IMG/VR virus record: IMGVR_UViG_3300012942_000033
Span: 35,512-99,511 of that record
Strand: one strand, 5' to 3'
Source: a virus
Taxonomy: Duplodnaviria > Heunggongvirae > Uroviricota > Caudoviricetes
Length of the DNA: 64,000 nucleotides
A model generated the notes under the pieces. The model did not search any database, was not told the origin of the DNA, and saw only the letters and a list, made by a program, of their open reading frames with translations. Every line of letters begins with the position of its first letter. The first letter of the stretch is position 1. Shown in pieces: positions 26,270 to 60,618 of this stretch. Position numbers and translations under genes: made by a program.

Positions 26270-26294
26270 CATCTTGGTGTCACGTTGCTATATA
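26266..26294 (+). promoter_or_regulatory. sigma70-type promoter driving the tmRNA gene
   Basis: TTGACA (26266-26271), a 17-nt spacer, then TATATA (26289-26294). This places the transcription start near 26301, just ahead of the tmRNA acceptor piece. Confidence 0.55.
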
Positions 26295-26300
26295 GGATGG

Positions 26301-26760: not shown

Positions 26761-26827
26761 AAAGGGCCAACCTTCCTATTACTCTTGACCTATTGGTAAA
26801 CTCCATTATTCTGCCGGGTAATGGGGT

Positions 26828-39507: not shown

Positions 39508-40247
39508 TTCACAATCGGCTCTGGAACGAGCACACCGAGTCATGGGCCTACATGCGGGAGCTCTACAACATCTTCTTTGAACATACCAAGGATATGAACT
39601 ACCTGACCAATGGTAATGCCTGGCAGGGTATGAAGCTGATCTCGGATCAATACACCAGGAACCGTGCCGAGTTCCAGTCGCTCAGTGATCCTAATCAAAT
39701 CCCCGCATGGTTGAAGGTAAACCAACATCGCCTCTTCAATGTGCCACTGATCCAATGCGAGAAAGACCGTAAGCCCACCAAGTTTGATCGCTTCGAGTTC
39801 GTGACCTTCAAGGAAGAAGAGCAGCTAGATCACCGGTTCTATTTCGGCAACTCCTCGATAGAGGAAGACATCAAAGGGCCAGGATACCAGGGCGATCTGA
39901 GGGTCTACATTCCATACAAGACTCTGAGATACGATGATACAGCGGTCAAGTGGGCCCTGGCTAGCATGGGCATCTACACCTTTGAAATGGTCTACGGTTC
40001 GAATGATCAGGGCCGTTACCTAGATGCACTATTTGTCATGCTGGCCAGGGATTGGCACTTCAAGGTTGATTTCGCTGATTGGCAGATCCGAGGTAGTCGG
40101 GCTGGTAAACCAAACCCTCTTTTCGATGATCTGACCGATGAAGAATATGATCAGCTCTCCGAAGAGGAGAAGGATCAGGTCGACTTACACGAGCGACTCT
40201 GGGAAATTGAAGAAGGCTATCATGATGACGAGGATGATCGGTTATGA
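39504..40247 (+). CDS. hypothetical protein
   Basis: 247-aa ORF with an acidic C-terminus. Confidence 0.5.
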   Translation: MIHNRLWNEHTESWAYMRELYNIFFEHTKDMNYLTNGNAWQGMKLISDQYTRNRAEFQSLSDPNQIPAWLKVNQHRLFNVPLIQCEKDRKPTKFDRFEFVTFKEEEQLDHRFYFGNSSIEEDIKGPGYQGDLRVYIPYKTLRYDDTAVKWALASMGIYTFEMVYGSNDQGRYLDALFVMLARDWHFKVDFADWQIRGSRAGKPNPLFDDLTDEEYDQLSEEEKDQVDLHERLWEIEEGYHDDEDDRL

Positions 40248-40456
40248 TTGATCAGATGTCGCCTCATATCGTGGTAAGGATATCATCGACCAAACGGATT
40301 GCCAATCTCCGTCGTTGGCTCACGGATAAGAATCTCCGTCTTGGTGAGGATTACGAGTATTATGGCAAGTCAGGTAAAGAGACGATTGCCTTTGGCTTTC
40401 CGGAAGCCAGGAAGCAGATGGCTTTCATGTTCAAGTTGACCTTCGGTGGCCAATAG
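40244..40456 (+). CDS. FKL-WG family small protein (C-terminal AFMFKLTFGGQ)
   Basis: 70 aa; the C-terminus carries the family motif. Confidence 0.5.
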   Translation: MIDQMSPHIVVRISSTKRIANLRRWLTDKNLRLGEDYEYYGKSGKETIAFGFPEARKQMAFMFKLTFGGQ

Positions 40457-41056: not shown

Positions 41057-41117
41057 TGGTTGACACTCACCAGTCTGGTGCTAGATCTAGCCTTGAGACA
41101 ACAAGGAGATCGACGTG
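41057..41117 (+). promoter_or_regulatory. conserved promoter/leader cassette (second copy)
   Basis: TGGTTGACAC...ACAAGGAGATCGAC-GTG. The -10-like element is weaker here (GGTGCT). Confidence 0.35.
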
Positions 41118-42242
41118 CTGAATAAGCTGATGACACCGGAGACGAAGAAGCTGAGCAAGGCCTTTGACATGGCCGGCTTCGAAATCCGTTTCGTCGGCGG
41201 CTGCGTTCGGGACGTTCTGCTGGGTGTTGAACCCAAGGATGTGGATTTCTGCACTGACGCCACTCCTGACGAGATGCGCGATATCGCGGTAATCAACAAG
41301 TTCAAGTTCCTGCCCACTGGCATCGATCACGGCACCGCAACCATCGTAGTTGATGGTGAGCCCTTTGAGGTCACCACCCTGCGCGTTGATGCGGAGACTG
41401 ATGGTCGTCATGCCAAGGTCGAGTTCACCAGGGATTTTGAACTGGATGCCGAGAGGCGTGACCTGACCATCAACGCAATGTCGATGGATACAAAGGGCAA
41501 TCTCTTCGACTATTTCGGTGGCCAGGAGGATCTGAAGAACAAGGTCGTGCGGTTCGTCGGTGATGCGAAGACGCGCATCGAGGAGGATTACCTGCGTATC
41601 CTGCGTTACTTCCGTTTCGCGGCTCGGTTCGATGCACAGATGGATCAGGAGACGCTGGATATCTTCAGCGATCCTGAAGTGCTGGCTGGTCTGAATCGAG
41701 TTAGTGTTGAGCGGTTCTGGTTGGAGATGTCAAAGCTGCTGACCTATAGCGCTCGGGTGCGAGTCATGGAGGCTATCTTTGGCACTGGCGTCAATGCTTC
41801 GTTGAATCTGTTTCGGTTCGAGCCCAATGAGCTGAGCCGGGCCGATGATGCGGTGGCCGCATTGGCAACGCTGATCTCGAGCGACGACGAGGAGCGGTTC
41901 TTCCAAATCTGGAAGATGAGCTCTCCGGAGGAGGCAAAGGTTCGCAACATGATCCGTAACCGCGGTGGGTTCCTGGATGAAGTGCGCGTTGAGGTCATGC
42001 TGACCCGCGATAAGTTCCCCAGGGATCACGTGGTGAGCCTGGCTCTGGTCGCCAGTGAGCCCACGCTGGCTCAACATGCTAGGGATTTTGTTGTTCCGAC
42101 CTTCCCCATTACGGGTAAGGATCTGATGGGTGTTGGTATGGCTCCAGGCCCACAGATGGGTCAGCGCCTGCGTCGGATGGAAGCAGCCTGGGTTGATAGC
42201 CGGTGGAACCTGGCCAAGGAAGCCCTGATGGAGATCGAGTAA
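41115..42242 (+). CDS. CCA-adding tRNA nucleotidyltransferase / poly(A) polymerase family protein
   Basis: Class II nucleotidyltransferase head motifs: FVGGCVRDVLLG, DVDFCTDATPDE, GIDHGTATIV, RRDLTINAMS. GTG start. Confidence 0.8.
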   Translation: MLNKLMTPETKKLSKAFDMAGFEIRFVGGCVRDVLLGVEPKDVDFCTDATPDEMRDIAVINKFKFLPTGIDHGTATIVVDGEPFEVTTLRVDAETDGRHAKVEFTRDFELDAERRDLTINAMSMDTKGNLFDYFGGQEDLKNKVVRFVGDAKTRIEEDYLRILRYFRFAARFDAQMDQETLDIFSDPEVLAGLNRVSVERFWLEMSKLLTYSARVRVMEAIFGTGVNASLNLFRFEPNELSRADDAVAALATLISSDDEERFFQIWKMSSPEEAKVRNMIRNRGGFLDEVRVEVMLTRDKFPRDHVVSLALVASEPTLAQHARDFVVPTFPITGKDLMGVGMAPGPQMGQRLRRMEAAWVDSRWNLAKEALMEIE

Positions 42243-42526
42243 TGGCTCGAATCACCTTCGAGGAATATCAGGCCCAACTGGAAGAGCGCACACGCGAAAG
42301 CATCTGCGTCATTCTGGTTGGGTTTGATCATATGATCAAACAGACTGATCCTCAATGGCCCGATACCTTCCGTTGGATAGCGGGACCTGAGATTGAGGCG
42401 TTCTTCAAGCGGCACGGGATCAAGAAGCTCGTGATTCGCAATTCCGATGAGCCCAACGAGACGAGCTACTATTTCTCCAAAGATCACGCGGATATCGCCA
42501 CGCTTTTTAAACTAACCTTTGGCTGA
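42242..42526 (+). CDS. FKL-WG family small protein (ATLFKLTFG)
   Basis: TAATG overlap with the CCA-enzyme gene; C-terminal family motif. Confidence 0.5.
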   Translation: MARITFEEYQAQLEERTRESICVILVGFDHMIKQTDPQWPDTFRWIAGPEIEAFFKRHGIKKLVIRNSDEPNETSYYFSKDHADIATLFKLTFG

Positions 42527-42529
42527 ACA

Positions 42530-42826
42530 ATGAGTGAGGTTCAATTCATCATTAGGGTTGATGATTCGACCCTCCTCGACCACAATGCGACTCTTCGCAC
42601 TGAAGTAGTGGAGTGGCTGAACGATGTGGCAGGCCAGGTGAAATGCGATCGCCGGCACGTTCATTTCATAACCAGCCCACCCAATTGGTGGTATGAACGT
42701 CATCCTAGAACTGATATCGGATTTACCACGCTCACTAGGATGGCTATTCAAGCGGAGCAGACCTGGGACGTATTCACGTTCATCGATCCGAAGCTCGCCC
42801 TCTTATTCAAACTGGCCTGGTTATGA
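42530..42826 (+). CDS. FKL-WG family small protein (ALLFKLAWL)
   Basis: C-terminal motif; tandem array member. Confidence 0.5.
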   Translation: MSEVQFIIRVDDSTLLDHNATLRTEVVEWLNDVAGQVKCDRRHVHFITSPPNWWYERHPRTDIGFTTLTRMAIQAEQTWDVFTFIDPKLALLFKLAWL

Positions 42827-43149
42827 CATTCAATAGCAAGATGGAACCTGGTCCTTGGTATGCTGATGGTATTGAAGTTGGTGTGGATGATGTGCCAGAG
42901 GATGACCTCCTCTACACTGTTACCCTACGAGCTAATAACAGGGCTATACGGCGTGATGATGTCTACAACATGCCTGTGCCTAGCTTGGCCCTTACAACCT
43001 GGCTTAAAGCTAGGAATCGTGCGGATGAACGGATTCGCATGTCGCAATATGAGTTGATCGATGATCAACAAGGTGAGCCTTATTTCGTAGTTCACTTCCA
43101 CTTTGAGGATAAGGATCTCGCTATGCTCTTCAAGCTGGTATGGGCATGA
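42823..43149 (+). CDS. FKL-WG family small protein (AMLFKLVWA)
   Basis: C-terminal motif; ATGA overlap. Confidence 0.5.
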   Translation: MTFNSKMEPGPWYADGIEVGVDDVPEDDLLYTVTLRANNRAIRRDDVYNMPVPSLALTTWLKARNRADERIRMSQYELIDDQQGEPYFVVHFHFEDKDLAMLFKLVWA

Positions 43150-43445
43150 TTAGGGGATATCATACACTCACTGAACTTGAGAACCAGGTTCGATCTCTCG
43201 TAGATAGGCTCGCTCTAACCAAGGATACCAAATACCATCGAGGAGCTCGCTTTGATTACAAGATCCAGCCAGACTGGAAGGCCATGTATAAGTTCAGGAG
43301 AGCCAACACGGCCAGACGCACATGTCTGCTGATCAATTGGTGTGACAAGCATTGCCAGGGTGATTACTCATATGATGGCCTGCCCGTAGGATTTAGCTTC
43401 AAGGTCAAGAGCGATGCCATGCTATTCAAGCTAGCTTGGGGTTGA
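43140..43445 (+). CDS. FKL-WG family small protein (WCDKHCQGDY plus AMLFKLAWG)
   Basis: Carries both the central W-C-x-x-H-C-x-G-D-Y motif and the C-terminal motif. Confidence 0.6.
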   Translation: MGMIRGYHTLTELENQVRSLVDRLALTKDTKYHRGARFDYKIQPDWKAMYKFRRANTARRTCLLINWCDKHCQGDYSYDGLPVGFSFKVKSDAMLFKLAWG

Positions 43446-46500: not shown

Positions 46501-47106
46501 TTATAGGTTATGTCTATCTTCCAAGCTGAGTAGTTGTTCTCCTACGATGAGTTTGAAGAGCAACACGTCGTTTAATTTATCCAGGTAGAGGAACGTTCTG
46601 GGGCTGGTGACGAGTTTTACGGGGCCGGATAGCTTATCCAGTTCGGTTAGATTCTGAGGATCCAACCCCCACTTTGGGTCTTTGAATCCAAAACGATAGC
46701 CATACTCTCCGTAGAACTTCCCCTTGGGGCGAGGTTTGGGGAGGCCGAGATGCCAACATGTACGATCAACGATACGCACATGATTGAAGGTGAACATGAC
46801 CTGATGGCGGATGAACCAGCGAAGAACCTCAGGATCGTTGGAGAAGACGTTGAACTGATAGATTCGCTGATTGGATTGTAGGGCGATATCCTTGGCCATC
46901 AGATCGCTAAGGATGAGATCCTTGACCTGTTGCCAATCACCCCAATGAGTGATTTTCAATGATATGCCAAGGCCATAGGCGTACTGACCGAAGAATAGCG
47001 GTCTGCGCACTGTTTCGATCTGTGAATCCTCTACAAGATAACGTGCCATCAGTGCATCGCACGCCTTTTGGATTCTTTGTTCAAACGTCCAAGGCATACC
47101 CACCAT
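46501..47106 (-). CDS. hypothetical protein with an FKL-like motif (NDVLLFKLIVGEQ)
   Basis: 201 aa. The motif near the C-terminus resembles SDVLMFKLTWGGEQ of ORF 50883..51260. Confidence 0.45.
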   Translation of the reverse strand: MVGMPWTFEQRIQKACDALMARYLVEDSQIETVRRPLFFGQYAYGLGISLKITHWGDWQQVKDLILSDLMAKDIALQSNQRIYQFNVFSNDPEVLRWFIRHQVMFTFNHVRIVDRTCWHLGLPKPRPKGKFYGEYGYRFGFKDPKWGLDPQNLTELDKLSGPVKLVTSPRTFLYLDKLNDVLLFKLIVGEQLLSLEDRHNL

Positions 47107-47193: not shown

Positions 47194-47646
47194 ATGGCTT
47201 TGGTTGATCCAGAACGACCGGAAGATCAGATGGCTTTACTCGATGAAGCCAGCATCTACTTCCTGCGAGCAATCAAGCAGCATTATACCCGAGATACATC
47301 ACTTGATGTAATGGAAGCCCTTACGCCCATTCTGGGTAAGGATTGGAAGGGGCGGATCATCTTTGGTCTGATGGCGAATAAGCACCAGGCCATTAGGGCT
47401 ATCAGTATTAACCGTATGACTGCCCCTGCACTTGTGAATAAGATCAAGGCAATCAAGGAAGTTCGAGCAATCAGTCGGTTGGGTCTCGTTGAAGCTAAGA
47501 CTCTTGTTGAGGCGGCGTATGAGCGCTCACAGGTTGTTAAGGTGGCTGAGCAGCCCGAAACCATGTCTCAGGATAGTTGGAATCTGATCCTAAGCAATAG
47601 TATCAACGCCATCAAGGATGCTGGCTTTAGAGTGGAGATCTCATGA
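47194..47646 (+). CDS. hypothetical protein
   Basis: 150-aa ORF with a GTTGACAC box upstream (47144-47152). Confidence 0.5.
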   Translation: MALVDPERPEDQMALLDEASIYFLRAIKQHYTRDTSLDVMEALTPILGKDWKGRIIFGLMANKHQAIRAISINRMTAPALVNKIKAIKEVRAISRLGLVEAKTLVEAAYERSQVVKVAEQPETMSQDSWNLILSNSINAIKDAGFRVEIS

Positions 47647-49270: not shown

Positions 49271-50620
49271 TTAGAACTTGACCTTCTTCAAGGCCTCTAC
49301 CTCTTCACGATAGATGGCCTTGCGGCGTTCGGGGTCTTTGAGGATCGCCTTGTATTCCTTGATGTCAGCTTCAAGCAATTTGATCTTAGCCAACACATCA
49401 GCGTAGGCGTCTTTGGTCCAACGATGAGCTGGTAGATTGACTATGCGGTCAATACGCTTCTCATCTAGCTTCAACTTGGTTGTGACCTTGCTGACATCTA
49501 GATCCAATGAAGCACGGTCCTTGATACCGCCCAGGCGTGCTGGTAGCTTATCATCAAAACACAGTTTGACGCCCTTCCAGAAGCCCAGTTCATAGTCGTT
49601 CTTGGCTACTAGGTTCTCATATCGCACCTTATACCAGCCAAGCCGCCATTCGACGAAATCCTGAATGAGCTTCTCGGCGCTATCATACTGACGAATTGAT
49701 GAACCGTTCCAATCAATGACCACGATACGCTCGCTCTTCTTCTGCTTGAGCTTGAAGTAGTCAATGGCCCGATTCACATTCCAACCTCTGGCTGACCCTC
49801 TGGGTAGCTTGATCGTAATATCAATGGCATCAGTGGAGCGATCCGTGTACATCGAGATACGATTCTCATCCTCATACGTGTTGAGTCGTTCTTTGAACTT
49901 CTCGAGAGTCAGATCAGGTGGAAGCTCAGTGATCTTGATCGTGCTGGTGTCTAGGATCTCGAGCTTACCAGTAAATTCCCATGAGTTCTCCTCAAGGTGT
50001 TTCACACCAATGTCATAGAGCTCATATGATGGAGCGATCCTCTTGAGCTTCTTACCATCCAAGACATCGAGAGTGGCCTGAACTAGGTTCTTGAAAGAGC
50101 GGGGAAGGATCTCCGTACTCCAGCCCACTGCGATACCCGAGACGCCATTGAGCAATACCGTTGGTATAAGAGGAAGGAAGTGTTGTGGCTCGATGGTTGA
50201 CCCGTCATAGTTCTCCTTGACTGGCACGATATCCATATCAGGAAACATCAACTCCTGAGCGGCCTTGCCCCGCTTAACATAGGTATAACGGGGGGCTCCA
50301 ATTCCATCAACAGGAGCAACACGGGTTCCGAATGACCCAATACCATCTAGGAGTGGCACGTTGTTGACATAGGGTGCGGCGAGCATCGAGATCGAACCAG
50401 CAGCACTCTGGTCACCATGCAAATAGAGCCCACTCGATATCATTTCTCCGGCCAATGAAACGGTCTTGATCTTATCCTGGCGGCTCTTGACCAACCATAA
50501 TGCTTTACGTTGGGCGTCTTTGAGCCCATCAGCAACCTTTGGAATGGCGCGTGACTCACAAACGTAGATCGAATATTCTCGAGAGGTGTCTAGGATATAG
50601 TTTGAGCTATTCTGGGTCAT
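49271..50620 (-). CDS. DNA topoisomerase II medium subunit (T4 gp52-like, GyrA-like catalytic domain)
   Basis: IPKVADGLKDAQRKALW aligns with GyrA LPDVRDGLKPVHRRVLY. Active-site Tyr context GAPRYTYVKR. Confidence 0.8.
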   Translation of the reverse strand: MTQNSSNYILDTSREYSIYVCESRAIPKVADGLKDAQRKALWLVKSRQDKIKTVSLAGEMISSGLYLHGDQSAAGSISMLAAPYVNNVPLLDGIGSFGTRVAPVDGIGAPRYTYVKRGKAAQELMFPDMDIVPVKENYDGSTIEPQHFLPLIPTVLLNGVSGIAVGWSTEILPRSFKNLVQATLDVLDGKKLKRIAPSYELYDIGVKHLEENSWEFTGKLEILDTSTIKITELPPDLTLEKFKERLNTYEDENRISMYTDRSTDAIDITIKLPRGSARGWNVNRAIDYFKLKQKKSERIVVIDWNGSSIRQYDSAEKLIQDFVEWRLGWYKVRYENLVAKNDYELGFWKGVKLCFDDKLPARLGGIKDRASLDLDVSKVTTKLKLDEKRIDRIVNLPAHRWTKDAYADVLAKIKLLEADIKEYKAILKDPERRKAIYREEVEALKKVKF

Positions 50621-50682: not shown

Positions 50683-50892
50683 TTATGACCATCTCGCCTT
50701 AAACAAAAGGGCTTCCTTGACATCCTCGAAATCCAGATAAGCTCTCCAGCCATCGCTGACCTCAATGACTGGATAGAACTGACGACCGAAAGCCAATTTG
50801 CACCATTCCATGAACTGAGGGGATGGTCTGTAGATTTCTTTATCATCTAGAGCGATGATATTATGAGCGGGTACACTGACTCTTATGGCCAC
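50683..50892 (-). CDS. FKL-WG family small protein (ALLFKARWS)
   Basis: C-terminal motif; first gene of the minus-strand array. Confidence 0.5.
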   Translation of the reverse strand: MAIRVSVPAHNIIALDDKEIYRPSPQFMEWCKLAFGRQFYPVIEVSDGWRAYLDFEDVKEALLFKARWS

Positions 50893-51260
50893 CTTGAACT
50901 GCCCCAGAAATTGGGCTGTTCACCACCCCAAGTGAGCTTAAACATCAAGACGTCTGATTTCCTCGCGAACCAAAGAGCTGGCGGCTTCTTACCCCCAACC
51001 TTGATCCGGCCCATATCGGCAATGAATTCTGGCCTGAAACGCTTGGTGCGGATCATATAGCTAACCGCCGCTATTTCGCGACCCATGACCTTCTTAGGAG
51101 TGAGACTACCCAGCCAAACGGCTATCCTTGTATCGAACTCATACCAGGGCCAATCAGGATCTATTCCAAATCGACTGGTCGTACAATACCGGTAGAATTC
51201 AGGTACATCTACCCGCCAGGGTCTTAGGGGATTACGCCACCATTGCCTACGAATTTTCAT
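50883..51260 (-). CDS. FKL-WG family small protein (DVLMFKLTWGGEQ plus 14-aa tail)
   Basis: The motif is followed by an unusual extension that overlaps the next gene; possible frameshift or genuine variant. Confidence 0.45.
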   Translation of the reverse strand: MKIRRQWWRNPLRPWRVDVPEFYRYCTTSRFGIDPDWPWYEFDTRIAVWLGSLTPKKVMGREIAAVSYMIRTKRFRPEFIADMGRIKVGGKKPPALWFARKSDVLMFKLTWGGEQPNFWGSSRWP

Positions 51261-51499
51261 CGGCCACCAAAGGTCATCTTGAACAGCACCGCCTCGCTCA
51301 CTTTATCAAACCAAAACAAGCCATCAATGTGGCTCCAGTGATGCTTACAATGTTCCTCACACCAATCCTCCAGATCATTAACCCAGAGCCAGTAGGTGTT
51401 GCGATTCCACGGATCATTGGGTGCGAAAACTTTGACCTTAACGGCATGGCGATAACCCGTGCGAAGGCCCTTATACCCTCGAGGGGGATTCCAAGACAT
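51257..51499 (-). CDS. FKL-WG family small protein (WCEEHCKHHW plus AVLFKMTFGGR)
   Basis: Both motifs present. Confidence 0.55.
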   Translation of the reverse strand: MSWNPPRGYKGLRTGYRHAVKVKVFAPNDPWNRNTYWLWVNDLEDWCEEHCKHHWSHIDGLFWFDKVSEAVLFKMTFGGR

Positions 51500-51581
51500 A
51501 GCGATACTCCAGGAAGCGTGATTGCTTCCTAGTGTTCGCTGTGAAGGGCCTTACGATCAATCATAAACCTCGAATAGCACC

Positions 51582-51773
51582 TTATCCAATAAGTTCAACC
51601 TTGAGTATGGTGATTCGACTACCAGGCTTTTGCTTTTCGCCCCATCTAAGAGCGGCATTCCGAGCCTGACCCTCGCTCATATGATATCCCCAGAATACCA
51701 GATCGGTATCCTCATTCACGGTATCATGCATCAAGGTGATCTTCCAGAGCTTACACTGATTCATATCATCCAT
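51582..51773 (-). CDS. small hypothetical protein (no family motif)
   Basis: 63-aa ORF inside the array. Confidence 0.35.
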   Translation of the reverse strand: MDDMNQCKLWKITLMHDTVNEDTDLVFWGYHMSEGQARNAALRWGEKQKPGSRITILKVELIG

Positions 51774-52029
51774 TCGCTAATTTGAAAAGCATTGCGTCAT
51801 TGGCATCGGTAAAAAGAACCTGCGTGATGTTGAAAGGGTTAATCCTGAACTCACCTTGACAATTACCAGAACACCAGGCTTTAGCAAACTCGGTCATTTC
51901 CACTACCAAGTCAGTCATCCCCATTGGGCATTTACCCCTAGCCATCGCATCATCCAGGATATGACGACACATTGAACTTCTGAGGCCTAGATCAACCTGA
52001 TAGGTAAAACGGTAAAGGTCATCCATCAT
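51766..52029 (-). CDS. FKL-WG family small protein (WCSGNCQGEF plus AMLFKLANG)
   Basis: Both motifs present. Confidence 0.55.
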   Translation of the reverse strand: MMDDLYRFTYQVDLGLRSSMCRHILDDAMARGKCPMGMTDLVVEMTEFAKAWCSGNCQGEFRINPFNITQVLFTDANDAMLFKLANG

Positions 52030-52340
52030 AGGCTTCCACCCCAGACTAATTTGAATGCTGCGGCATCTTGGTCACTTTGGAAGTAGACCTTATACTGGTT
52101 TCGCTGGATGCTATTGAGTAAGGAATGATAGGGGTGATCCTCCGTACCAATCCTTGGCATCACACCTTGGCCCGAGATAACGACTGATTCTTGGGTCATC
52201 CTCTCTAGCCAGTCTCGGAGGTCATGATGGTTATCCTCCTTCATCTGGATGTGGAAGCTCGTAGCTCCCTTGATGTCAAGGTACCATTTGACCTGATCCT
52301 CTCGATCAACGATATAGATGCGTTGGTTCAGATCTGCCAT
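52026..52340 (-). CDS. FKL-WG family small protein (AAAFKLVWGGSL)
   Basis: C-terminal motif. Confidence 0.5.
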   Translation of the reverse strand: MADLNQRIYIVDREDQVKWYLDIKGATSFHIQMKEDNHHDLRDWLERMTQESVVISGQGVMPRIGTEDHPYHSLLNSIQRNQYKVYFQSDQDAAAFKLVWGGSL

Positions 52341-52579
52341 TGGTTTTCAAATGCTTCCGCGTCATCATGATTCTTGAACCATGCGGTAACTTCATAGGAT
52401 CGACCAATGCCGATTCGTTCTGGTTGAAACTCAACTACCCTATACTGCATGGGGCCCTTTAGGTGCTCTCTACACCAATGAACTATGAACTCCTCATCAA
52501 ACACACCACGCTCGAATTCCTTGATACGCTTATGTGGCATGTGCTTAGGTGGTGTTCCGTTTCTATGTACTGTCCCCAT
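52328..52579 (-). CDS. divergent FKL-WG family member (HWCREHLKG plus DAEAFENQWQI)
   Basis: Central WC motif is retained; the C-terminal motif is degenerate. Confidence 0.4.
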   Translation of the reverse strand: MGTVHRNGTPPKHMPHKRIKEFERGVFDEEFIVHWCREHLKGPMQYRVVEFQPERIGIGRSYEVTAWFKNHDDAEAFENQWQI

Positions 52580-52792
52580 CTAATGCCTCAACTTGAAGAT
52601 GATCGCCTGCTCCTTCGTCTCGAAGGATAAGCCCTTAATTTCGTGATTACCCACATAGTGAAAAGCTACCGTATGGGTGATTCGCATCTCCATGAGTATT
52701 TCCCAGGCCCGATTGAAAGCATCACTCTTAAAGGCAAGTGGTGGATTGAACTCTATGTACTTTCTAGTGGCCCGCTCGGGCATGAATGCCAC
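52580..52792 (-). CDS. FKL-WG family small protein (AIIFKLRH)
   Basis: Truncated C-terminal motif. Confidence 0.45.
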   Translation of the reverse strand: MAFMPERATRKYIEFNPPLAFKSDAFNRAWEILMEMRITHTVAFHYVGNHEIKGLSFETKEQAIIFKLRH

Positions 52793-53040
52793 CTCAATTT
52801 GAACATCATCGCATCCTGCGGTTCCGCGAATGTGATATTGATTGCGATCTGGGTGTGGCCCATGCCGTAGGCCTTTATTCCACTAGAGTGACACCACTCC
52901 TCTAGTGCGTCAATAATTCTGGTGGCAAAGACCTCCCAGGATTTCTCCACGTCATTATCGATCAACCTGAACTGCAGACCAATTGAATTGCCGATAGCTT
53001 TGATCTGTCTGTCATACCTCATGAAGGAGAACGTAATCAC
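52753..53040 (-). CDS. FKL-WG family small protein (EWCHSSG plus AMMFKLRWHS with tail)
   Basis: Both motifs present; the tail overlaps the next gene. Confidence 0.5.
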   Translation of the reverse strand: MITFSFMRYDRQIKAIGNSIGLQFRLIDNDVEKSWEVFATRIIDALEEWCHSSGIKAYGMGHTQIAINITFAEPQDAMMFKLRWHSCPSGPLEST

Positions 53041-53330
53041 ACGCCACCGAAGGCCAATTTGAAAGCCATAGCATCGGCCTTATTCTTGAATCTCCAGCTG
53101 TAGCGAATGCTGGTGTAGTGAAGGCGAACCCTCACAGGGTTGAGGCCCTGTGGTGCATTGGTCTCAACTTTGCGTTCATAACCCCAAGTCTGGCCCAGGT
53201 CACCAAGTTGATCTCCACACCATTGATTGACATCCATCATCTGCATGAAGTCATCTTCAACAGGCGTAGTCTGGTATTCAATCCAATGGGGGAACTGGTA
53301 GTCGGGTAATTCCTGATAGGTCAGCTTCAT
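53037..53330 (-). CDS. FKL-WG family small protein (QWCGDQLGD plus AMAFKLAFGGV)
   Basis: Both motifs present. Confidence 0.55.
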   Translation of the reverse strand: MKLTYQELPDYQFPHWIEYQTTPVEDDFMQMMDVNQWCGDQLGDLGQTWGYERKVETNAPQGLNPVRVRLHYTSIRYSWRFKNKADAMAFKLAFGGV

Positions 53331-53338
53331 TTACCTAC

Positions 53339-53629
53339 TTATCTGTCCCAACTGAGCTTAAACATCAAAGCATCATTGGCATTCTTGAATGTCAAAGCGT
53401 AGGTAAGATGGAGATAATGGGTAGTTGGGTCATGAGCCTTACCATTGAAGCACCAACCAAATTGGTCATTATCCAGATTCGCTATGAATTCCATGTAGGT
53501 TGGCGCCTGCTTACCTACATTCTCTTCAAGCCATCCGACGGCTTCTTGGCTCAGGATATCGCTGTAACGATTCAACCAACCCAGACTGTCAGATACTGGT
53601 ATGTAGATCGTAGTCGTTTCGTAGGTCAT
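53339..53629 (-). CDS. FKL-WG family small protein (GWCFNGKAHD plus ALMFKLSWDR)
   Basis: Both motifs present. Confidence 0.55.
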   Translation of the reverse strand: MTYETTTIYIPVSDSLGWLNRYSDILSQEAVGWLEENVGKQAPTYMEFIANLDNDQFGWCFNGKAHDPTTHYLHLTYALTFKNANDALMFKLSWDR

Positions 53630-54048
53630 TCACCACCCCACGTTAGCTTAAAGAGCATAGCATCATTGTGGTTTTCAAACCAGAACCACATGCTTGGTGT
53701 GGTCACTCCAAGGGTGTCGAGGATCTCACGATCAATTTCTCTTTGAAGGTCGCGCGCCAAAGCATCAGTAATCATCGCTTCTAACCAATTCGAATCATTG
53801 GCTTTGCGTGGATTGGGTATCAGACCATCAGCTATATCAATACTGCGTTGATAGACATCATCATCGATCAAGACCTTATCATGAGATCTCGCGTAATCGC
53901 CTTGGCAGTTTTCTCGGCACCATGTATCAACCTCCGTAACATCGTCATGATAGACTGACACTCGAACACCTTGACGTTCGAGTTTAAGCCATCTCTCGGC
54001 TGTTGCTCTGTCATGGAACTCGGCGTTGATCATTGGAATCTGGCTCAT
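53626..54048 (-). CDS. FKL-WG family small protein (TWCRENCQGDY plus AMLFKLTWGGE)
   Basis: Both motifs present; the longest typical member. Confidence 0.55.
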   Translation of the reverse strand: MSQIPMINAEFHDRATAERWLKLERQGVRVSVYHDDVTEVDTWCRENCQGDYARSHDKVLIDDDVYQRSIDIADGLIPNPRKANDSNWLEAMITDALARDLQREIDREILDTLGVTTPSMWFWFENHNDAMLFKLTWGGE

Positions 54049-54049
54049 A

Positions 54050-54340
54050 TTAGCACCACGTTAATTTGAAAATTACGGCCGCATCTGGATTTCTGATCTC
54101 CACGCAAGCAGACCAGCTATAAAGAAGGGGTGGCATGTGATTGTCGCCGAGGTGATGGAAGGTTACCATGTAATCCCTGGTGAGCTTATAACCTCTATCA
54201 TCAAACCAACTACCAAACAGATGGCGGATTGCTTTGCGACGATCATTCGCTTTAGGATAATGGTAGTGAAGATCAGGATACCTTCCATCTTCACCACATT
54301 CAATCTGAAACAGTTTCTCCAGGTAGACCATCATCCCCAC
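54050..54340 (-). CDS. FKL-WG family small protein (AVIFKLTWC)
   Basis: C-terminal motif. Confidence 0.5.
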   Translation of the reverse strand: MGMMVYLEKLFQIECGEDGRYPDLHYHYPKANDRRKAIRHLFGSWFDDRGYKLTRDYMVTFHHLGDNHMPPLLYSWSACVEIRNPDAAVIFKLTWC

Positions 54341-54612
54341 GTGAGTTTGAATAGCAGAGCATCGGCCTCATTGAGGAAGGCGAAACCCGTTCTCCCCATC
54401 ACATTAACGGGTTTGGGTGGAGAAGAGCAATTTACTCGGCACCATCGCATAAGCACCGCCATACCCTGGTTGATTTCATTGGTAGTGTATCTGGTAAACA
54501 TGGCAGGATGGATCACACCACCAATTTCAACAATGCGATCCACACTGATATAGGCAACGATGTCAGTTTCACTTGGAGTGTACCAGATGGTCAACCAATC
54601 TCGATATGGCAC
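54331..54612 (-). CDS. FKL-WG family small protein (RWCRVNCSS plus ALLFKLTWG)
   Basis: Both motifs present. Confidence 0.55.
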   Translation of the reverse strand: MPYRDWLTIWYTPSETDIVAYISVDRIVEIGGVIHPAMFTRYTTNEINQGMAVLMRWCRVNCSSPPKPVNVMGRTGFAFLNEADALLFKLTWG

Positions 54613-55026
54613 TTAGAGGCCACCAAACTTCAATTTGAGGAACATAGCCATCTTGGGGTCTCGAACGCAGACTTGTATCGCACCCTTGCCTTTGTGGGTC
54701 GTTTCACCCCTCACATACCAATCATAATCCTGAGGTCTTTGATACCAATCCAGGCCAAATGCACGGCGTTCTCCCGCGTTCCTGTCTAGCCATTCCTTGA
54801 TGCCAGGTTTGATCTGAGTGACCCATTTGTCTTCTGGATCAGGTTCGTAGAAGTCATCCTTCGGTATATAGACATTAGCATAACCATCGGCCTTATCTGG
54901 TTCATCCTTCCAGAATTCCTCTGGGTCAACTGGCTCAGTTGGAGTCAGATCCAGATGAGTATTCCAGTTCTTGGGGGTCTTTGACCAAGACCAGAGGTAT
55001 GGAATGTCTTCTTCATTCTCTTCCAT
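54613..55026 (-). CDS. FKL-WG family small protein (AMFLKLKFGGL)
   Basis: C-terminal motif; abuts the topoisomerase large-subunit gene. Confidence 0.5.
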   Translation of the reverse strand: MEENEEDIPYLWSWSKTPKNWNTHLDLTPTEPVDPEEFWKDEPDKADGYANVYIPKDDFYEPDPEDKWVTQIKPGIKEWLDRNAGERRAFGLDWYQRPQDYDWYVRGETTHKGKGAIQVCVRDPKMAMFLKLKFGGL

Positions 55027-56898
55027 TTAGAGCCCGATCCAGGCCTTTCGATCATCTGACCGCTTACTGTTGAAGATCAAATCCAGTGTCTCCTCCATCT
55101 TGCCATCATCGACTACTGGATAGACCTCTGGGTTCTTGAGTGAATATTCCCAATCCTCACGAGTCAAAGTGCCAAGACCTTTAGCTCTGGTAATGGTCCA
55201 ACCGCTATAGGCTTCAGGGCTGAAATCCTGGTAGTTATGAGCATACCAGTATTTGCGCGTCTTACCCCTCTCCGCGATGATGAAGGGCGTGCGGAAGATG
55301 TGAACGAATGGGTGCTTTGGATCCTGAAAGAGTTCTGGCCAATAGGTGTGGAAGAAGTTGATCAGCAGGGCACCGATGTTGAGGCCGTCTGGGTCCATAT
55401 CATGGGCCACATAGACCTTGCCATAGCGAAGATCATCCAATTTGGCCTTCTGGCCAATTACCAAACCCAGGCAATTCATGATGTCACCGAGTTCCTTGTT
55501 ATCGATGACCTTCTTGGGTGATTCTCCATTCACATTGAGCACCTTACCCTTCATGCCTAGACCACCATGAAGATCAGGATCTCGGCAACTCCCCATACCC
55601 GAGATAGCGCTCTCACCTTCGGCTAGGAAGAGGATACACTTGGAACGATCCTTACCAGTGGCATCCATGAGCCTTGGAACCTTATTGCGGAGGTTCTTCT
55701 TCGCCGCCTTCGCGATATCAGCGGCATCTTTCTTCATCGTGCGCTCAGCACAACGCTTGTAGATATCCTCAATCCAGTCTCGGTTCTTACGGATGAACTC
55801 CTTGTAGAGATCTGGATTTTCGAGATGAGCCTTGATGATCCTGCTGACTTCCTCGTTAATCAGGCGGGTTTTGCTTTGACTATCGAAGTTAGGGCCATGC
55901 ATGTTGGTGATGTTGTAGATGAGTACACCTTCGGTGACATCTGAGCGGTTGGGTTGGAGGCGACGTTTCTTTGATTCACGTTCAAGAGCGGTAAGGAGAT
56001 TACCATAGAAGAGACGGCGGAAGGTCTCGATGTGAACACCACCATTGAATGCTGGAATGTTGTTGACGATCGTATGAACGTGTTCTCCTGATTCGATCCA
56101 GTTGGGCACAATCCAGAAGCGACTACGGAAGGTGTCTTCCTTGATCTCAATGGCCATTGGCTTCATACCGGGGAATAAGGTCTGCTCAGGTCGGGGCTTA
56201 ACCTTGATCTGCTCACCATTGTAGTAGATCTTGATCAGAGGGTTACAGATAGCAACCTCAGTAACTCGAGAGCGGATGAATTCCTCAGGAAGGATCAGAT
56301 CGGAGAAGACTTCACTGGATAGCTTGAATGTGATCTTCGTGCCATTCTGGCCTTGCCTCTTCGTCAGCTTGACCTTACCAAACTGAAGCGAGTCACCAAA
56401 TACCGCATTACCCTCGGTGAATTCCTGTTGGAACCTCTCGCCATCCTTCTGGATATCTAGCTTGAAATACTCGGAGCAGAAGTTCACGACACTGGCGCCA
56501 ATACCATTGGTACCCGCAACTTCGCCTCGTTCTTCAAAGTTACGACCAGCTCTCGCCTCTGTCATAACCAACGTGGCTAGGTGCATCTTATGCGCGTCAT
56601 CATAGGCGATTGGAATACCCCTACCATCATCCTCAACGCTCATTTCTCGAGTCGTTGGATCATAGGTCACTCTGATCTTACTACCAAAGCCATGACCCAC
56701 AAGTTCGTCGAGTGAGTTATCGAGGATCTCTCGGAAACCCGTATAGAGGGCTGGAACCCAAGTGGTTTCGACAGGAGTGGGCTTACCATCCACAAATTCC
56801 AAAATGGTCTGGGTATGTGGCGCGCGGCTACCCAGATACATTTCCGTTCGCAATCTCGCGTGCGAGTAATCAGAAAGTTTCTTAATGTTGTTTGACAT
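55027..56898 (-). CDS. DNA topoisomerase II large subunit (T4 gp39-like; GyrB-like ATPase plus Toprim)
   Basis: GHKL ATPase N-terminus (LRTEMYLGS...ILDNSLDE...DDGRGIP). Toprim segment CILFLAEGESA aligns with GyrB LyLVEGDSAGG. 623 aa. Confidence 0.85.
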   Translation of the reverse strand: MSNNIKKLSDYSHARLRTEMYLGSRAPHTQTILEFVDGKPTPVETTWVPALYTGFREILDNSLDELVGHGFGSKIRVTYDPTTREMSVEDDGRGIPIAYDDAHKMHLATLVMTEARAGRNFEERGEVAGTNGIGASVVNFCSEYFKLDIQKDGERFQQEFTEGNAVFGDSLQFGKVKLTKRQGQNGTKITFKLSSEVFSDLILPEEFIRSRVTEVAICNPLIKIYYNGEQIKVKPRPEQTLFPGMKPMAIEIKEDTFRSRFWIVPNWIESGEHVHTIVNNIPAFNGGVHIETFRRLFYGNLLTALERESKKRRLQPNRSDVTEGVLIYNITNMHGPNFDSQSKTRLINEEVSRIIKAHLENPDLYKEFIRKNRDWIEDIYKRCAERTMKKDAADIAKAAKKNLRNKVPRLMDATGKDRSKCILFLAEGESAISGMGSCRDPDLHGGLGMKGKVLNVNGESPKKVIDNKELGDIMNCLGLVIGQKAKLDDLRYGKVYVAHDMDPDGLNIGALLINFFHTYWPELFQDPKHPFVHIFRTPFIIAERGKTRKYWYAHNYQDFSPEAYSGWTITRAKGLGTLTREDWEYSLKNPEVYPVVDDGKMEETLDLIFNSKRSDDRKAWIGL

Positions 56899-59276: not shown

Positions 59277-59361
59277 TGCGAACTGCTGATCAAGGCTATA
59301 CGATAATAGGTGGTATCCAGCATACCACTAAATATCGGTAAGCAGAGTTCGAGGTCGCGTA

Positions 59362-60618
59362 ATGAGTGAAACCAAAAAGAATCTGAGCTGCTCTTTCTGT
59401 AGCAAGCGACAGGAAGACGTTCAGAAGCTAATTGCTGGCCCTGATGTTTTCATCTGTAATGATTGCGTTCAGCTTTGCGCAGATATCCTCAAAGAGGATG
59501 AGGGCGCGATTGCTTCCTTGGGTTTCAAAGACGGTATTCCTAGCCCTCGCCAGATCAAGGAGTTCCTGGATCAGTATGTGATTGGGCAGGATGAGGCCAA
59601 AATGGTCATGGGTGTTGCGGTTCATAATCATTACAAGCGTCTGGCCAATCCAGTCGTTGATGATGTTGAACTCGAGAAATCCAATATCCTCCTACTTGGC
59701 CCCACCGGCTCCGGTAAGACCCTGATGGCTCGAAGCATTGCGAAGCTTCTTGATGTGCCTTTCACGATTGCTGATGCGACCAGCCTCACTGAAGCAGGTT
59801 ATGTGGGTGATGATGTCGAGACGATCATCACACGCCTACTCCAAGTCTGTGATAATGATGTATCGAAGGCAGAGCGTGGTATCATCTACCTGGATGAGGT
59901 GGATAAGAAGGCTAAGAGGGGTGATTCTGCTTCCATTAGTCGTGATGTCTCGGGTGAAGGCGTCCAACAAGCCCTCCTCAAGATCATTGAGGGTAGTGAA
60001 GTTCGAGTTCCAGTAACGGGTAACCGCAAACATCCTAATGCCGAAATGGCGGTCGTAAACACCAAGAATATCCTCTTCATTGTTGGTGGGGCCTTCGTGG
60101 GTCTCGACGATATTGTGGCCAAACGCCTCAACAAGAATCGAAGCGGCATTGGTTTTGGGGCGGCGATCCAAATGGCTTCTGATCCAAAGAAAGCAGCTAG
60201 CGAGGCTTTCCTCAAAATGGTCGAACCAGAGGATCTAACCAAGTTCGGTCTGATACCTGAACTAGTGGGCCGTCTTCCGGTTATTACCAATCTAGAAGAG
60301 CTAGATCAGGATCAAATGGTTAAGGTACTCACTGAACCCAAGAACGCGCTAGTGAAGCAATTCCAGAAGCAGTTCCAACTCGCTGGGGTTCAATTGGAAT
60401 TCGATGAGGATGCCTTGAGGGCAATCGCCAAGGATGCGATTATCCGTAAGACTGGAGCACGTGGTCTTCGAAGCGTTATCGAAAAGCGCTTGATCAAGGT
60501 CCAATTTGATCTACCTGATCTCAAGGCTCAAGGGGCCCATGCGGTTCGAGTAAGTCAGGATGTCATTACTGGTTCGGCCGAACCACTCGTCGTTTATGAG
60601 AAAGCGGCCAATGAATGA
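59362..60618 (+). CDS. clpX: ATP-dependent Clp protease ATP-binding subunit ClpX
   Basis: N-terminal C4 zinc-binding domain (CSFCSKRQEDVQKLIAGPDVFICNDCVQLC). Walker A LLLGPTGSGKTLMA. ClpX-type IGF-loop region and sensor motifs. Confidence 0.85.
   Translation: MSETKKNLSCSFCSKRQEDVQKLIAGPDVFICNDCVQLCADILKEDEGAIASLGFKDGIPSPRQIKEFLDQYVIGQDEAKMVMGVAVHNHYKRLANPVVDDVELEKSNILLLGPTGSGKTLMARSIAKLLDVPFTIADATSLTEAGYVGDDVETIITRLLQVCDNDVSKAERGIIYLDEVDKKAKRGDSASISRDVSGEGVQQALLKIIEGSEVRVPVTGNRKHPNAEMAVVNTKNILFIVGGAFVGLDDIVAKRLNKNRSGIGFGAAIQMASDPKKAASEAFLKMVEPEDLTKFGLIPELVGRLPVITNLEELDQDQMVKVLTEPKNALVKQFQKQFQLAGVQLEFDEDALRAIAKDAIIRKTGARGLRSVIEKRLIKVQFDLPDLKAQGAHAVRVSQDVITGSAEPLVVYEKAANE

Follow-up and report, generated by a model that had tools for sequence, protein, structure and literature searches.

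The run of small open reading frames (ORFs) between the two topoisomerase II genes of this phage raises the question of whether they encode one family of proteins and, if so, what the motif shared near their C termini represents. All 20 ORFs that an earlier note had assigned to such a family (19 small ones and a 201-aa protein) are present at the coordinates it gave in the window, that is, the whole 64,000-nucleotide stretch analyzed, and the motif is found in every one. An HMM built from the C-terminal 35 residues of the 20 members and searched against the 1106 six-frame ORFs of the window recovered all of the training sequences (E <= 1.6e-7). The best nonmember reached only E = 0.88; therefore, no other ORF in the window resembles the family. 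These ORFs are real small genes, and the mini-domain that they encode is uncatalogued. A Trp located 18 to 64 residues N-terminal to the FK motif is nearly invariant (>=90% of members), and a W-C pair occurs in about 10 members. The full WCxxNCxG[DE][YF] box is limited to three (53626-54048, 43140-43445, and 51766-52029), with partial versions in 51257-51499 and 54331-54612. The description of the C-terminal module as near-identical was too strong, since the mean pairwise identity of the 14-residue motif is 39%. The N-terminal extension varies from 11 to 86 residues and the Trp-to-FK spacing from 18 to 64.

Fourteen members lie on the minus strand, flanked upstream by the gene encoding the topoisomerase II large (GyrB-like) subunit (55027..56898, minus strand; 70% identity to Phosso and 60% to Atu_ph07), whose stop codon directly adjoins the first gene of the family, and downstream by the gene encoding the A (GyrA/ParC-like) subunit (49271..50620, minus strand; PF00521 on orthologs). 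Their existence stands, but they are not strictly consecutive as had been claimed, because an unrelated 63-aa ORF (51582..51773, minus strand) interrupts the array. This ORF is conserved at the equivalent position in related phages, and its ortholog in the related phage contig L015 is 79% identical (omega, 0.12).

The first family gene, 54613..55026 (137 aa), has the variant motif AMFLKLKFGGL (family HMM E, 2.1e-6), and no ortholog of it was found in L015 or L018. It is followed by 54331..54612 (93 aa; WCRVNCSS and then GFAFLNEADALLFKLTWG; E, 7.6e-17), with an L015 ortholog that is 80% identical (omega, 0.10), and by 54050..54340 (96 aa; IRNPDAAVIFKLTWC), which is matched by the family HMM and for which no clear ortholog was found in L015 or L018. 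The gene at 53626..54048 (140 aa; WCRENCQGDY and then FWFENHNDAMLFKLTWGGE) has a capsid-like insert at residues 89 to 113. Next come 53339..53629 (96 aa; LTFKNANDALMFKLSWDR; L015 ortholog 73% identical, omega 0.15), 53037..53330 (97 aa; WRFKNKADAMAFKLAFGGV; L018 ortholog 52% identical), and 52753..53040 (95 aa; family HMM), in which the motif precedes a 12-residue tail (FKLRWHSCPSGPLEST). The weakest motif of all, KEQAIIFKLRH, is that of 52580..52792 (70 aa), which the broader family HMM missed, although its L015 ortholog (73% identical) passes. A degenerate helix (DDAEAFENQWQI) is found in 52328..52579 (83 aa; L015 ortholog 85% identical), and 52026..52340 (104 aa; IYIVDREDQVKWY) belongs to a widely conserved ortholog group. 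The family HMM also matches 51766..52029 (87 aa; WCSGNCQGEF and then DANDAMLFKLANG) and, beyond the 63-aa ORF, 51257..51499 (80 aa; WCEEHCKHHW and then VSEAVLFKMTFGGR). The array ends with 50883..51260 (125 aa; pI 10.6; an 11-residue tail after the motif) and 50683..50892 (69 aa), the latter 62 nt upstream of the A-subunit gene. Array junctions are overlaps of 4 to 40 nt or gaps of 0 to 8 nt, and promoter- or terminator-like sites were not enriched in the array; the family genes would be cotranscribed with their neighbors.

The five members reported on the plus strand are also present, laid out as a lone gene, 40244..40456 (70 aa; MAFMFKLTFGGQ; C-terminal HMM), plus a four-gene run after the gene for the CCA-adding enzyme (41115-42242). 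This run occupies a position equivalent to that of Phosso genes 499 to 503 and consists of 42242..42526 (94 aa; C-terminal HMM), 42530..42826 (98 aa; PKLALLFKLAWL; sequence P0024 is identical), 42823..43149 (108 aa; KDLAMLFKLVWA; C-terminal HMM), and 43140..43445 (101 aa; WCDKHCQGDY and then KSDAMLFKLAWG; C-terminal HMM). The 201-aa protein (46501..47106, minus strand) carries the domain in diverged form close to its C terminus (LNDVLLFKLIVGEQ plus 12 residues) and is the ortholog of Phosso gene 508 (34% identity over the full length; E, 9e-39). Metagenome forms of 211 to 217 aa look similar to it.

Conservation of the motif acts at the protein level. The conserved F, K, L, and A residues are encoded by all synonymous codons (Lys by AAG 9 times and AAA 9 times; Leu by five codons), the DNA repeats of the array are only 62 to 81% identical and are restricted to the motif, and codon-position GC in the family genes is that of the flanking topoisomerase genes. 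Reciprocal-best orthologs of 11 of the 14 array members occur in L015 in the same order (40 to 85% identity). Wherever dS could be estimated, omega was 0.10 to 0.43, values that are rough because dS is close to saturation for the genomes compared. Evolution of the family genes outpaces that of the topoisomerase genes on either side (dN of 0.08 to 0.55 versus 0.05 to 0.12), and the regions that vary among paralogs are well conserved between orthologs. The ordered orthologs, the low omega, and the conservation of the variable regions do not support the suggestion that the family is rapidly diversifying or hypervariable; the paralogs are old, individually maintained, and under purifying selection. 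The same results, together with the recovery of 1383 protein clusters from many samples (representatives at 50% identity), bear on the view that the ORFs are noncoding or decayed duplicate remnants and that the motif is a DNA-level repeat, e.g., a recombination or regulatory element. That view could draw on the canonical Shine-Dalgarno sequences found before only 4 of 21 starts and on the G-rich TGGGGTGG that the WGG codons put 4 to 10 nt ahead of several downstream start codons. However, it is effectively refuted by the codon diversity, the number of clusters, and the ordered orthologs with omega below 0.5, and we give it virtually no chance.

The family is expanded in Phosso-like jumbo phages of Alphaproteobacteria and in related metagenomic contigs, with dozens of copies per genome; its carriers form a group of giant phages that infect soil bacteria. 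The 64-kb window contains 20 copies and Phosso at least 52, and IMG/VR contigs of 119 to 436 kb have arrays of 6 to 9 members. Copies are confined to nonstructural operons, with 14 of them here within the topoisomerase II operon, and none was found in the virion gene region of Phosso (177 to 318 kb). L015, L018, and L019 likewise have syntenic arrays between both topoisomerase genes, and at the equivalent place, 15 small ORFs follow one another in a JGI contig of about 407 kb; between these genes, Phosso has four members and Atu_ph07 has none. The family was not found in Pfam-A, PHROGs, NCBIfam, PADLOC, or PDB sequences, and literature searches yielded no description of it. The earlier note, which did not recognize the motif from any characterized phage family, is borne out by these searches, and its view that one single-domain family is present in many copies is also supported.

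The shared motif is most likely the core of a folded domain rather than a tag. The predicted fold is a small alpha/beta domain whose core of approximately 50 to 60 residues would comprise a helix with h-x-x-W-[C/L]-x-x-N at its end, a beta-hairpin with the last strand h-x-F-x-F, and a C-terminal amphipathic helix, D-A-x-L-F-K-L-x-W, with a G-G cap. AlphaFold models, which have only moderate overall confidence, place in the core of 43140-43445 (m16e4616485c9; residues 51 to 101 at pLDDT 79 to 95) a helix (51 to 71), a hairpin (76 to 78 and 85 to 87), and a second helix (90 to 100). Extra strands in the model of 52026..52340 (ma9fba73b22ed; pLDDT 74.7, pTM 0.65) give a beta-alpha-beta-beta-alpha sandwich. 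The smallest natural members (52 to 53 aa) consist of the Trp helix, hairpin, and helix alone. Hydrophobic or aromatic residues occupy 8 of the 12 conserved positions, a pattern that suggests burial in the core, and the predicted three-element core would make both motifs of the earlier note hydrophobic core and helix caps, not a linear signal. With two strands and two helices in about 50 residues, such a core may require a partner or dimerization for stability. A pure fold core leaves two features unaccounted for, the invariant Lys and the strong preference for ending 3 to 6 residues beyond FKL (about 80% of members, typically in WGG or WGGx); both could mark a common functional site.

That ending preference recalls C-terminal degrons and tags, such as ssrA-LAA for ClpXP and the GG termini of Pup or ubiquitin-like proteins. 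The conserved extreme C terminus ends in GG or GGE, the window has genes for a ClpX-like ATPase (59332-60618) and for a tmRNA with a tag ending in LAA, and Phosso also has ClpP, ClpS, and further Clp-family ATPases. The module could then be a linear signal (a phage or host ClpXP degron or a capsid-targeting sequence) on cargo or regulated-turnover proteins, similar to the targeting or degradation signal proposed earlier. We consider this very unlikely: the module is predicted to be structured (a strand plus an amphipathic helix, pLDDT 86 to 95 by AlphaFold) and not beta-grasp, is conserved together with the distant Trp, and is internal in two- and three-domain proteins. Other members, including three in the window, carry 10- to 30-residue extensions after it, the residue following GG is variable, the structural block of Phosso is without members, and single members also occur in prophage-like regions with no Clp genes within the 16 kb examined. 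A conserved module joined to a variable region, an invariant Lys, a conserved C-terminal cap, and the unusually rich proteostasis gene set of the host phages would also suit degradation or targeting adaptors that dock a common partner, e.g., the phage Clp machinery, and recruit substrates through their variable parts, like the F-box, BTB, and ankyrin families that are expanded in large eukaryotic viruses. However, co-occurrence gives no signal (Atu_ph07 has ClpX and no recognizable member in one 13.5-kb region; no Clp genes lie near the copies in the prophage-like region examined), and the conserved positions are mostly hydrophobic and resemble a core more than a surface patch, making such adaptors highly improbable.

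Two further readings look to particular resemblances. The insert of 53626-54048, which separates the Trp helix from the final strand, is similar to the spine helix of the gp23-type major capsid protein and is 48% identical to residues 199 to 223 of the Phosso capsid protein, and segments in this subfamily match the E-loop strand plus spine helix. Pfam Gp23 (PF07068) matches 6 of the 17 members of the 140-aa subfamily (up to 45 bits; best E, 1.2e-11), hhalign of the subfamily against a capsid protein alignment gives a probability of 85.6% (E, 5.6e-6), and Phosso gene 170 has a different capsid segment, the C-terminal YKG...PYVPL...RYG (25.8 bits versus a Pfam threshold of 24.4). That all members originate from the major capsid protein and act on it, as mimics modulating assembly or as decoys for capsid-sensing host immunity, is nevertheless decidedly unlikely. 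By itself, 53626-54048 scores just 10.9 to 13.7 bits, such segments occur in only 9 of 347 family sequences as fragments of 25 to 60 residues grafted on the small domain with the rest of the HK97 fold absent, general family profiles lack capsid similarity (probability < 1%), and the family genes are away from the head genes. RRM- and ACT-type ferredoxin-like alpha/beta sandwiches are also among the closest known systems, and by eye, GF-x-F-x4-DA-x2-h-x2-h-G resembles RNP1 plus helix 2 in the RRM consensus. Many Phosso clusters lie among genes for tRNAs, aminoacyl-tRNA synthetases, the CCA-adding enzyme, and RNA ligases, consistent with RRM-like RNA-binding proteins serving the large tRNA/translation gene set of the phage. 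This neighborhood may merely reflect common placement in accessory regions, however, and an RNA-binding role is unlikely given that the domain lacks the fourth strand, none of the >130 members scanned matched a Pfam RRM or ACT model, and the family pI (4.6 to 10.6) has a median of 5.7, with 43% of members below 5.5.

A comparable lineage-specific expansion of a small domain in a jumbo phage is the ~35-copy zinc-ribbon family of Bacillus phage G (Iyer et al. 2021, PMC7824862), a survey that does not mention the present domain. Both families have dozens of single-domain paralogs in arrays in one very large genome, with a role presumed to be regulatory or conflict related. Unlike the zinc ribbons, this domain is alpha/beta and as a rule without a metal-binding signature, and its lineage is that of gp23-type phages of Alphaproteobacteria. 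The array is also like the small early ORFs of the "hyperplastic region" reportedly described in a review of the T4 genome for T4-like phages, in that its genes are packed and translationally coupled between essential early/middle genes and vary in number among relatives. However, those ORFs are mostly mutually unrelated, whereas in the present array a single domain family accounts for nearly all genes, most of which are retained as orthologs in related phages.

We tentatively favor, as a possibility somewhat short of probable, an uncatalogued alpha/beta domain, expanded in Phosso-like phages, that serves as a scaffold for paralog-specific partner binding. The working analogy is with poxvirus Bcl-2-like proteins and African swine fever virus MGF360/505, in which a small stable fold is duplicated many times and paralogs are thought to bind different host targets; no evolutionary relation is implied. 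The binding-scaffold role is proposed by this analogy. The variation in N-terminal length, Trp-to-FK spacing, and pI, together with the conservation of paralog-specific regions between orthologs, is in line with a scaffold that has variable surfaces. The common scaffold would carry paralog-specific N-terminal extensions and loop inserts, each paralog may use these to bind a different partner, and the 53626-54048 subfamily would mount a segment copying the capsid spine helix. Judging the timing of expression from gene neighborhood only, the paralogs may be accessory early/middle proteins for host takeover, anti-defense, or assembly control, and an effector or anti-defense role is a plausible candidate for this family.

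Fourteen motif-ending ORFs of 69 to 140 aa occupy 4.4 kb of the minus strand (50683-55026) between the genes encoding the large, GyrB-like subunit (55027-56898) and the A subunit (49271-50620) of topoisomerase II. On the plus strand, the ORF listing also has one member standing alone (40244-40456) and, immediately after the gene for the CCA-adding enzyme, four in a row (42242-43445), and a 201-aa protein encoded on the minus strand (46501-47106) carries a diverged copy of the domain near its C terminus. Every gene named in the earlier note is thus present at its coordinates. An HMM trained on the last 35 residues of these 20 sequences retrieved all 20 from among the 1,106 six-frame ORFs of the window (E ≤ 1.6e-7), and there is no 21st member, the next-best ORF having an E value of 0.88. 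A 63-aa ORF inside the array (51582-51773, minus strand) does not carry the family motif; it is a separate small gene with an orthologue at the same position in the related phage contigs L015 (79% identical, omega of 0.12) and L018.

For the large topoisomerase subunit, identity is 70% with the Sinorhizobium phage Phosso (469 kb) protein and 60% with that of Agrobacterium phage Atu_ph07 (490 kb), and the window comes from a jumbo phage whose capsid protein is of the gp23 type. It encodes a two-piece (permuted) tmRNA (26262-26777, plus strand; Rfam alpha_tmRNA, 98.8 bits) with the tag peptide ANDNTVEVALAA. A phage-encoded tmRNA of the alphaproteobacterial type points to an alphaproteobacterial host, which is therefore the probable one. 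The 201-aa protein is 34% identical to the product of Phosso gene 508 (E of 9e-39), and its branch of the family may be the oldest as well as the most conserved. Its positional counterpart in Atu_ph07 is a 208-aa protein (L002 9284-9910, plus strand) with a degenerate C terminus, YIYLTEEVDAVTASMILSS.

These ORFs are genuine genes with constraint at the protein level, and the non-coding status that the earlier note had allowed for is excluded. For the conserved F, K, L, and A residues, all synonymous codons are used (Lys AAG 9 and AAA 9; five codons for Leu), and only 44% of identical residues share a codon. DNA repeats within the array are 62 to 81% identical and restricted to the motif. Together with the synonymous codon diversity, this rules out a DNA-level element. 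The GC content of the family genes by codon position (0.52/0.38/0.53) is like that of the topoisomerase genes. Junctions between neighboring genes, those with the topoisomerase genes included (n = 16), are tight: nine overlap by 4 to 40 nt, five are spaced by 0 to 8 nt, and only two have gaps of >60 nt. A scan for promoters and terminators found no enrichment of promoter- or terminator-like sites, and this, with the tight packing, suggests that the array and the topoisomerase genes form a single operon. From this context, its expression would be timed with that of replication genes. Of 21 starts, only 4 are preceded by a canonical Shine-Dalgarno motif. At array junctions, for example, at 53629-53650, 52029-52050, and 51260-51280, the W-G-G codons of one gene (TGGGGTGG or TTTGGTGG) sit 4 to 10 nt before the start of the next and might also act as a weak ribosome-binding site that couples translation of the two.

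A second element is common to the family. In the full-length alignment, 90% or more of members have a Trp, which mostly stands in the context h-x-x-W-[C/L]. The WCxxNCxG[DE][YF] box described in the earlier note is complete in three members and partial in two more. A general metal site at WCxxNC is unlikely, as the Cys is not conserved and W-L is commoner than W-C (95 versus 75). Two AlphaFold models were built with family alignments. The model of 52026-52340 (pLDDT of 74.7, pTM of 0.65) runs strand, short helix, strand, helix, strand, strand, helix. That of 43140-43445 is poorly defined in its N-terminal half, and its core (residues 51 to 101, pLDDT of 79 to 95) comprises the Trp helix, a hairpin with G-F-S-F as its second strand, and the helix S-D-A-M-L-F-K-L-A-W. 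Since the predicted core holds both the Trp helix and the C-terminal helix, the two "motifs" appear to be parts of a single compact domain. Of the 12 conserved positions, eight are hydrophobic or aromatic and would form the core of the fold, and the Asp and Gly-Gly are at the positions expected for helix caps. The motifs of the earlier note are most likely the fold core of this domain. About 80% of members terminate 3 to 6 residues past FKL, which fits single-domain proteins with that helix as the last element.

The earlier note had listed a shared C-terminal targeting or degradation signal among the candidate roles, and the Clp genes of these phages lend such a signal, or a Clp adaptor, some plausibility. 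A ClpX-like ORF (59332-60618, plus strand) shows, by eye, a zinc-ribbon-like N terminus and a Walker A motif; the L015 orthologue of a 150-aa ORF (47194-47646, plus strand) matches Pfam Ribosomal_L12; and Phosso also has ClpP, ClpS, IF-1, IF-3, S21, ribosome recycling factor, and several aminoacyl-tRNA synthetases. The Phosso-like clade has an unusually large set of proteostasis and translation genes. An ssrA-like degron calls for a free, unstructured, accessible C terminus with conserved terminal residues. Internal copies of the motif are found in the tandem-domain proteins P0032, P0045, P0049, P0050, and P0162; 10 to 30 residues trail it in 50883-51260, 52753-53040, 46501-47106, and the 211- to 217-aa forms; the residue after GG is E, D, A, K, Q, S, R, or none; and the last 12 residues are predicted to be helical and packed on the hairpin (pLDDT of 86 to 95). 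The internal copies, trailing residues, variable end, and predicted folding weigh against an ssrA-like degron and likewise against an end of the Pup or ubiquitin kind, and the motif probably does not act as a terminal signal. Modifiers of the latter kind have a beta-grasp fold (or, for Pup, are disordered), an invariant GG or GGQ/E end, and conjugation enzymes nearby, whereas the fold predicted here is helix-hairpin-helix, the termini vary (WG, WGGx, WL, WA, and WS), and inspection of the neighboring genes revealed no conjugation enzymes. The arguments against a linear signal leave room for a shared surface site, the Lys being invariant.

A role in binding nucleic acids was also considered. 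For an RRM-like RNA binder, we took a beta-alpha-beta-beta-alpha-beta fold with four strands as the standard; in a search for RRM profiles (RNP1/RNP2), no Pfam RRM family was among the matches at E values up to 1. Members differ widely in the spacing from Trp to FK (18 to 64 residues) and in the N-terminal extension (11 to 86 residues). Their pI ranges from 4.6 to 10.6 in the window, with a median of 5.7 across 281 members, 43% of which are below 5.5. The spread of 4.6 to 10.6 makes a uniform nucleic-acid-binding or DNA-mimic role unlikely, and both were set aside on this basis. For the degron, the Clp adaptor, and the RRM-like RNA binder, as for an origin of the family from a capsid protein, there is some support and more against.

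The capsid-protein reading arises from a 140-aa gene of the array (53626-54048, minus strand) that is part of a widely conserved subfamily. Six of 17 subfamily members match Pfam Gp23 (major capsid protein, PF07068), the best being P0109 (E of 1.2e-11). Some open with a segment resembling the gp23 E-loop strand (KQVVTAKTRQLNATYKVEIAQ versus KQVVEAKSRQLKAQYSIELAQ; BLASTP, 4e-9), and all carry a spine-helix-like insert. When the subfamily was compared with a capsid alignment, hhalign returned a probability of 85.6% (E of 5.6e-6), and residues 89 to 113 of 53626-54048 are 48% identical to residues 199 to 223 of the Phosso capsid protein. The window gene itself is weak (10.9 to 13.7 bits), and the capsid signal leans on the subfamily; against PF07068, it reaches 13.7 bits over model positions 170 to 197 only, below the gathering threshold of 24.4 bits that, with coverage of the HK97-fold core, would be required of a gp23-type capsid protein. 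P0109 (45.1 bits) and the product of Phosso gene 170 (25.8 bits) exceed this threshold through fragments of 30 to 60 residues. The latter (L023:13923-14303, minus strand) starts with the C-terminal beta segment of gp23, YKG..DA..YY.PYVPL ... RYG, so that two unrelated members, the 53626-54048 subfamily and Phosso gene 170, carry different gp23 fragments. In the profile-profile comparison, the general family profile gave a probability below 1% against capsid, and capsid HMMs matched only 9 of 347 family sequences. The likeness therefore belongs to particular members, and derivation of the whole family from a capsid protein was set aside on the negative comparison with the general profile. In the longer members, only capsid-protein fragments were found as domain fusions; other Pfam matches were noise.

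The family is large. When 1.84 billion representatives were searched exhaustively with HMMER, 1,383 clusters were returned at E ≤ 1e-3, most of them single-domain proteins of 50 to 105 aa; the smallest are of 52 to 53 aa, and some have two or three tandem domains. All matches in a word-indexed search were unannotated proteins, many on contigs of 400 to 480 kb. The exact DALLFKLTWGG coding pattern is found in 11 IMG/VR contigs, mostly of 100 to 436 kb, and arrays of six to nine members are present in the IMG/VR contigs L003, L008, and L012. The motif being too short for BLAST, the whole Phosso genome was scanned with HMMs, which revealed no fewer than 52 members, or about 8% of its roughly 660 genes, every one of them annotated "hypothetical protein." They cluster at 3 to 14, 95 to 100, 113 to 122, 166 to 177, 348 to 349, 369 to 370, and 377 kb, and the same scan found none among the virion genes at 177 to 318 kb. 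With 20 copies in the window and at least 52 in Phosso, the earlier description of a single-domain family kept at high copy number holds.

DNA of relatives was sought with degenerate DNA patterns; the alignment offers no sufficiently conserved stretch. In 185,579 species genomes of bacteria and archaea, the degenerate pattern had three matches, in Novosphingobium, Methylobacterium, and a proteobacterial MAG; one Methylorubrum copy is located in a prophage-like region. In Methylobacterium sp. E-066 (L035 5847-7067, plus strand), only the last strand and helix are present (VKFDVLSDALLFKLTWG), without the upstream Trp helix, and this half-domain stands at the start of a stop-to-stop frame of 406 aa; it is probably a remnant, either fused to an unrelated gene or lying next to one. 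A near-identity DNA search against phage records had no match, and in a tblastn search of 50,697 phage records, three of four queried members had no meaningful match, and the fourth matched Phosso alone. In the 13.5 kb of Atu_ph07 examined, the degenerate counterpart of the 201-aa protein is the only recognizable member; three Atu_ph07 proteins are weak structural matches in BFVD.

Library searches bear out the earlier impression of an uncatalogued motif. Ten window members, 10 compact metagenomic members, and the 114 aligned family sequences had no relevant match at family threshold in Pfam-A 2025, PHROGs v4, NCBIfam 20, or PADLOC 2, and a profile search of PDB sequences gave nothing below an E value of 0.6. 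No account of the family emerged from full-text literature searches on the motif, on Phosso, and on families of paralogues in phages like Atu_ph07. In their survey of jumbo phages, Iyer et al. (PMC7824862) report a zinc-ribbon expansion of about 35 copies in phage G, a comparable multiplication of paralogues, and make no mention of the small-domain family. Thus, the family is new, and lineage-specific paralogue expansion in very large phages is already known. The present case is such an expansion, with many one-domain paralogues per genome, partly in tandem arrays.

Copy number between the topoisomerase genes differs among related genomes. There are 14 members and one unrelated ORF in the window, 12 members and an inserted 216-aa ORF in L015, four members in Phosso, and none in Atu_ph07; 13 to 14 small ORFs occupy the interval in L018 and L019, and 15, counted as ORFs only, in a JGI contig of about 407 kb. 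Eleven of the 14 array members have reciprocal-best orthologues in L015, with order kept and identities of 40 to 85% (compared with 93% and 88% for the topoisomerase subunits on either side), and 10 have orthologues in L018. The earlier note had viewed the family as rapidly diversifying or hypervariable. Array members do evolve faster than core genes (dN of 0.08 to 0.55 versus 0.05 to 0.12 for the topoisomerase genes), yet the orthologues are syntenic, and omega is 0.10 to 0.43 for those with estimable dS, these being rough values with dS near saturation; that view is therefore not upheld. In the 104-aa group, the paralogue-specific regions IYIVDREDQVKWY and VISGQGVMPRxGTxDHP are well conserved between orthologues. 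Such conservation, with the ordered orthologues, indicates that the paralogues are old and individually maintained. The 216-aa ORF of L015 (7714-8364, plus strand), which is absent from the window, lies just before the topoisomerase A-subunit gene, has a Cys/His-rich C terminus, and is possibly a homing endonuclease. A window ORF (40471-41055, plus strand) between the member at 40244-40456 and the CCA-adding enzyme gene is HNH-like by eye. Mobile nucleases may help to remodel the family arrays.

Overall, a new virus-centered family of small domains, massively expanded in Phosso-like jumbo phages, is well supported, as are its location in nonstructural operons and the purifying selection on its old paralogues. 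We infer that the small domain would serve as a common scaffold on which paralogue-specific extensions and inserts could provide a separate partner for each copy, and that the proteins may be accessory early or middle factors in host takeover, anti-defense, or assembly control. The capsid-like grafts of some members suggest a scaffold able to carry mimic segments. A further step, in which a tiny, stable helix-hairpin-helix domain would act as a display scaffold for short pieces copied from other proteins and the paralogues would be molecular mimics or decoys, seems to us improbable. If they are mimics, they could blunt capsid-sensing host immunity or could tune or poison capsid assembly, that of competing phages included.

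Jumbo phages carry hundreds of small genes annotated without function that are usually taken as unrelated orphans, and here many "hypothetical proteins" become one domain family and one tractable question. The minimal domain of 52 residues is within reach of NMR, a culturable phage-host pair is available (Phosso on Sinorhizobium meliloti), and the arrays offer defined orthologues and natural differences in copy number for deletion and expression screens. At a minimum, a family entry is warranted, which would end gene-by-gene annotation as orphans. If the paralogues are specific binders or mimics, they would supply small natural binding scaffolds and would be to bacterial viruses what the multigene families are to large viruses of eukaryotes.
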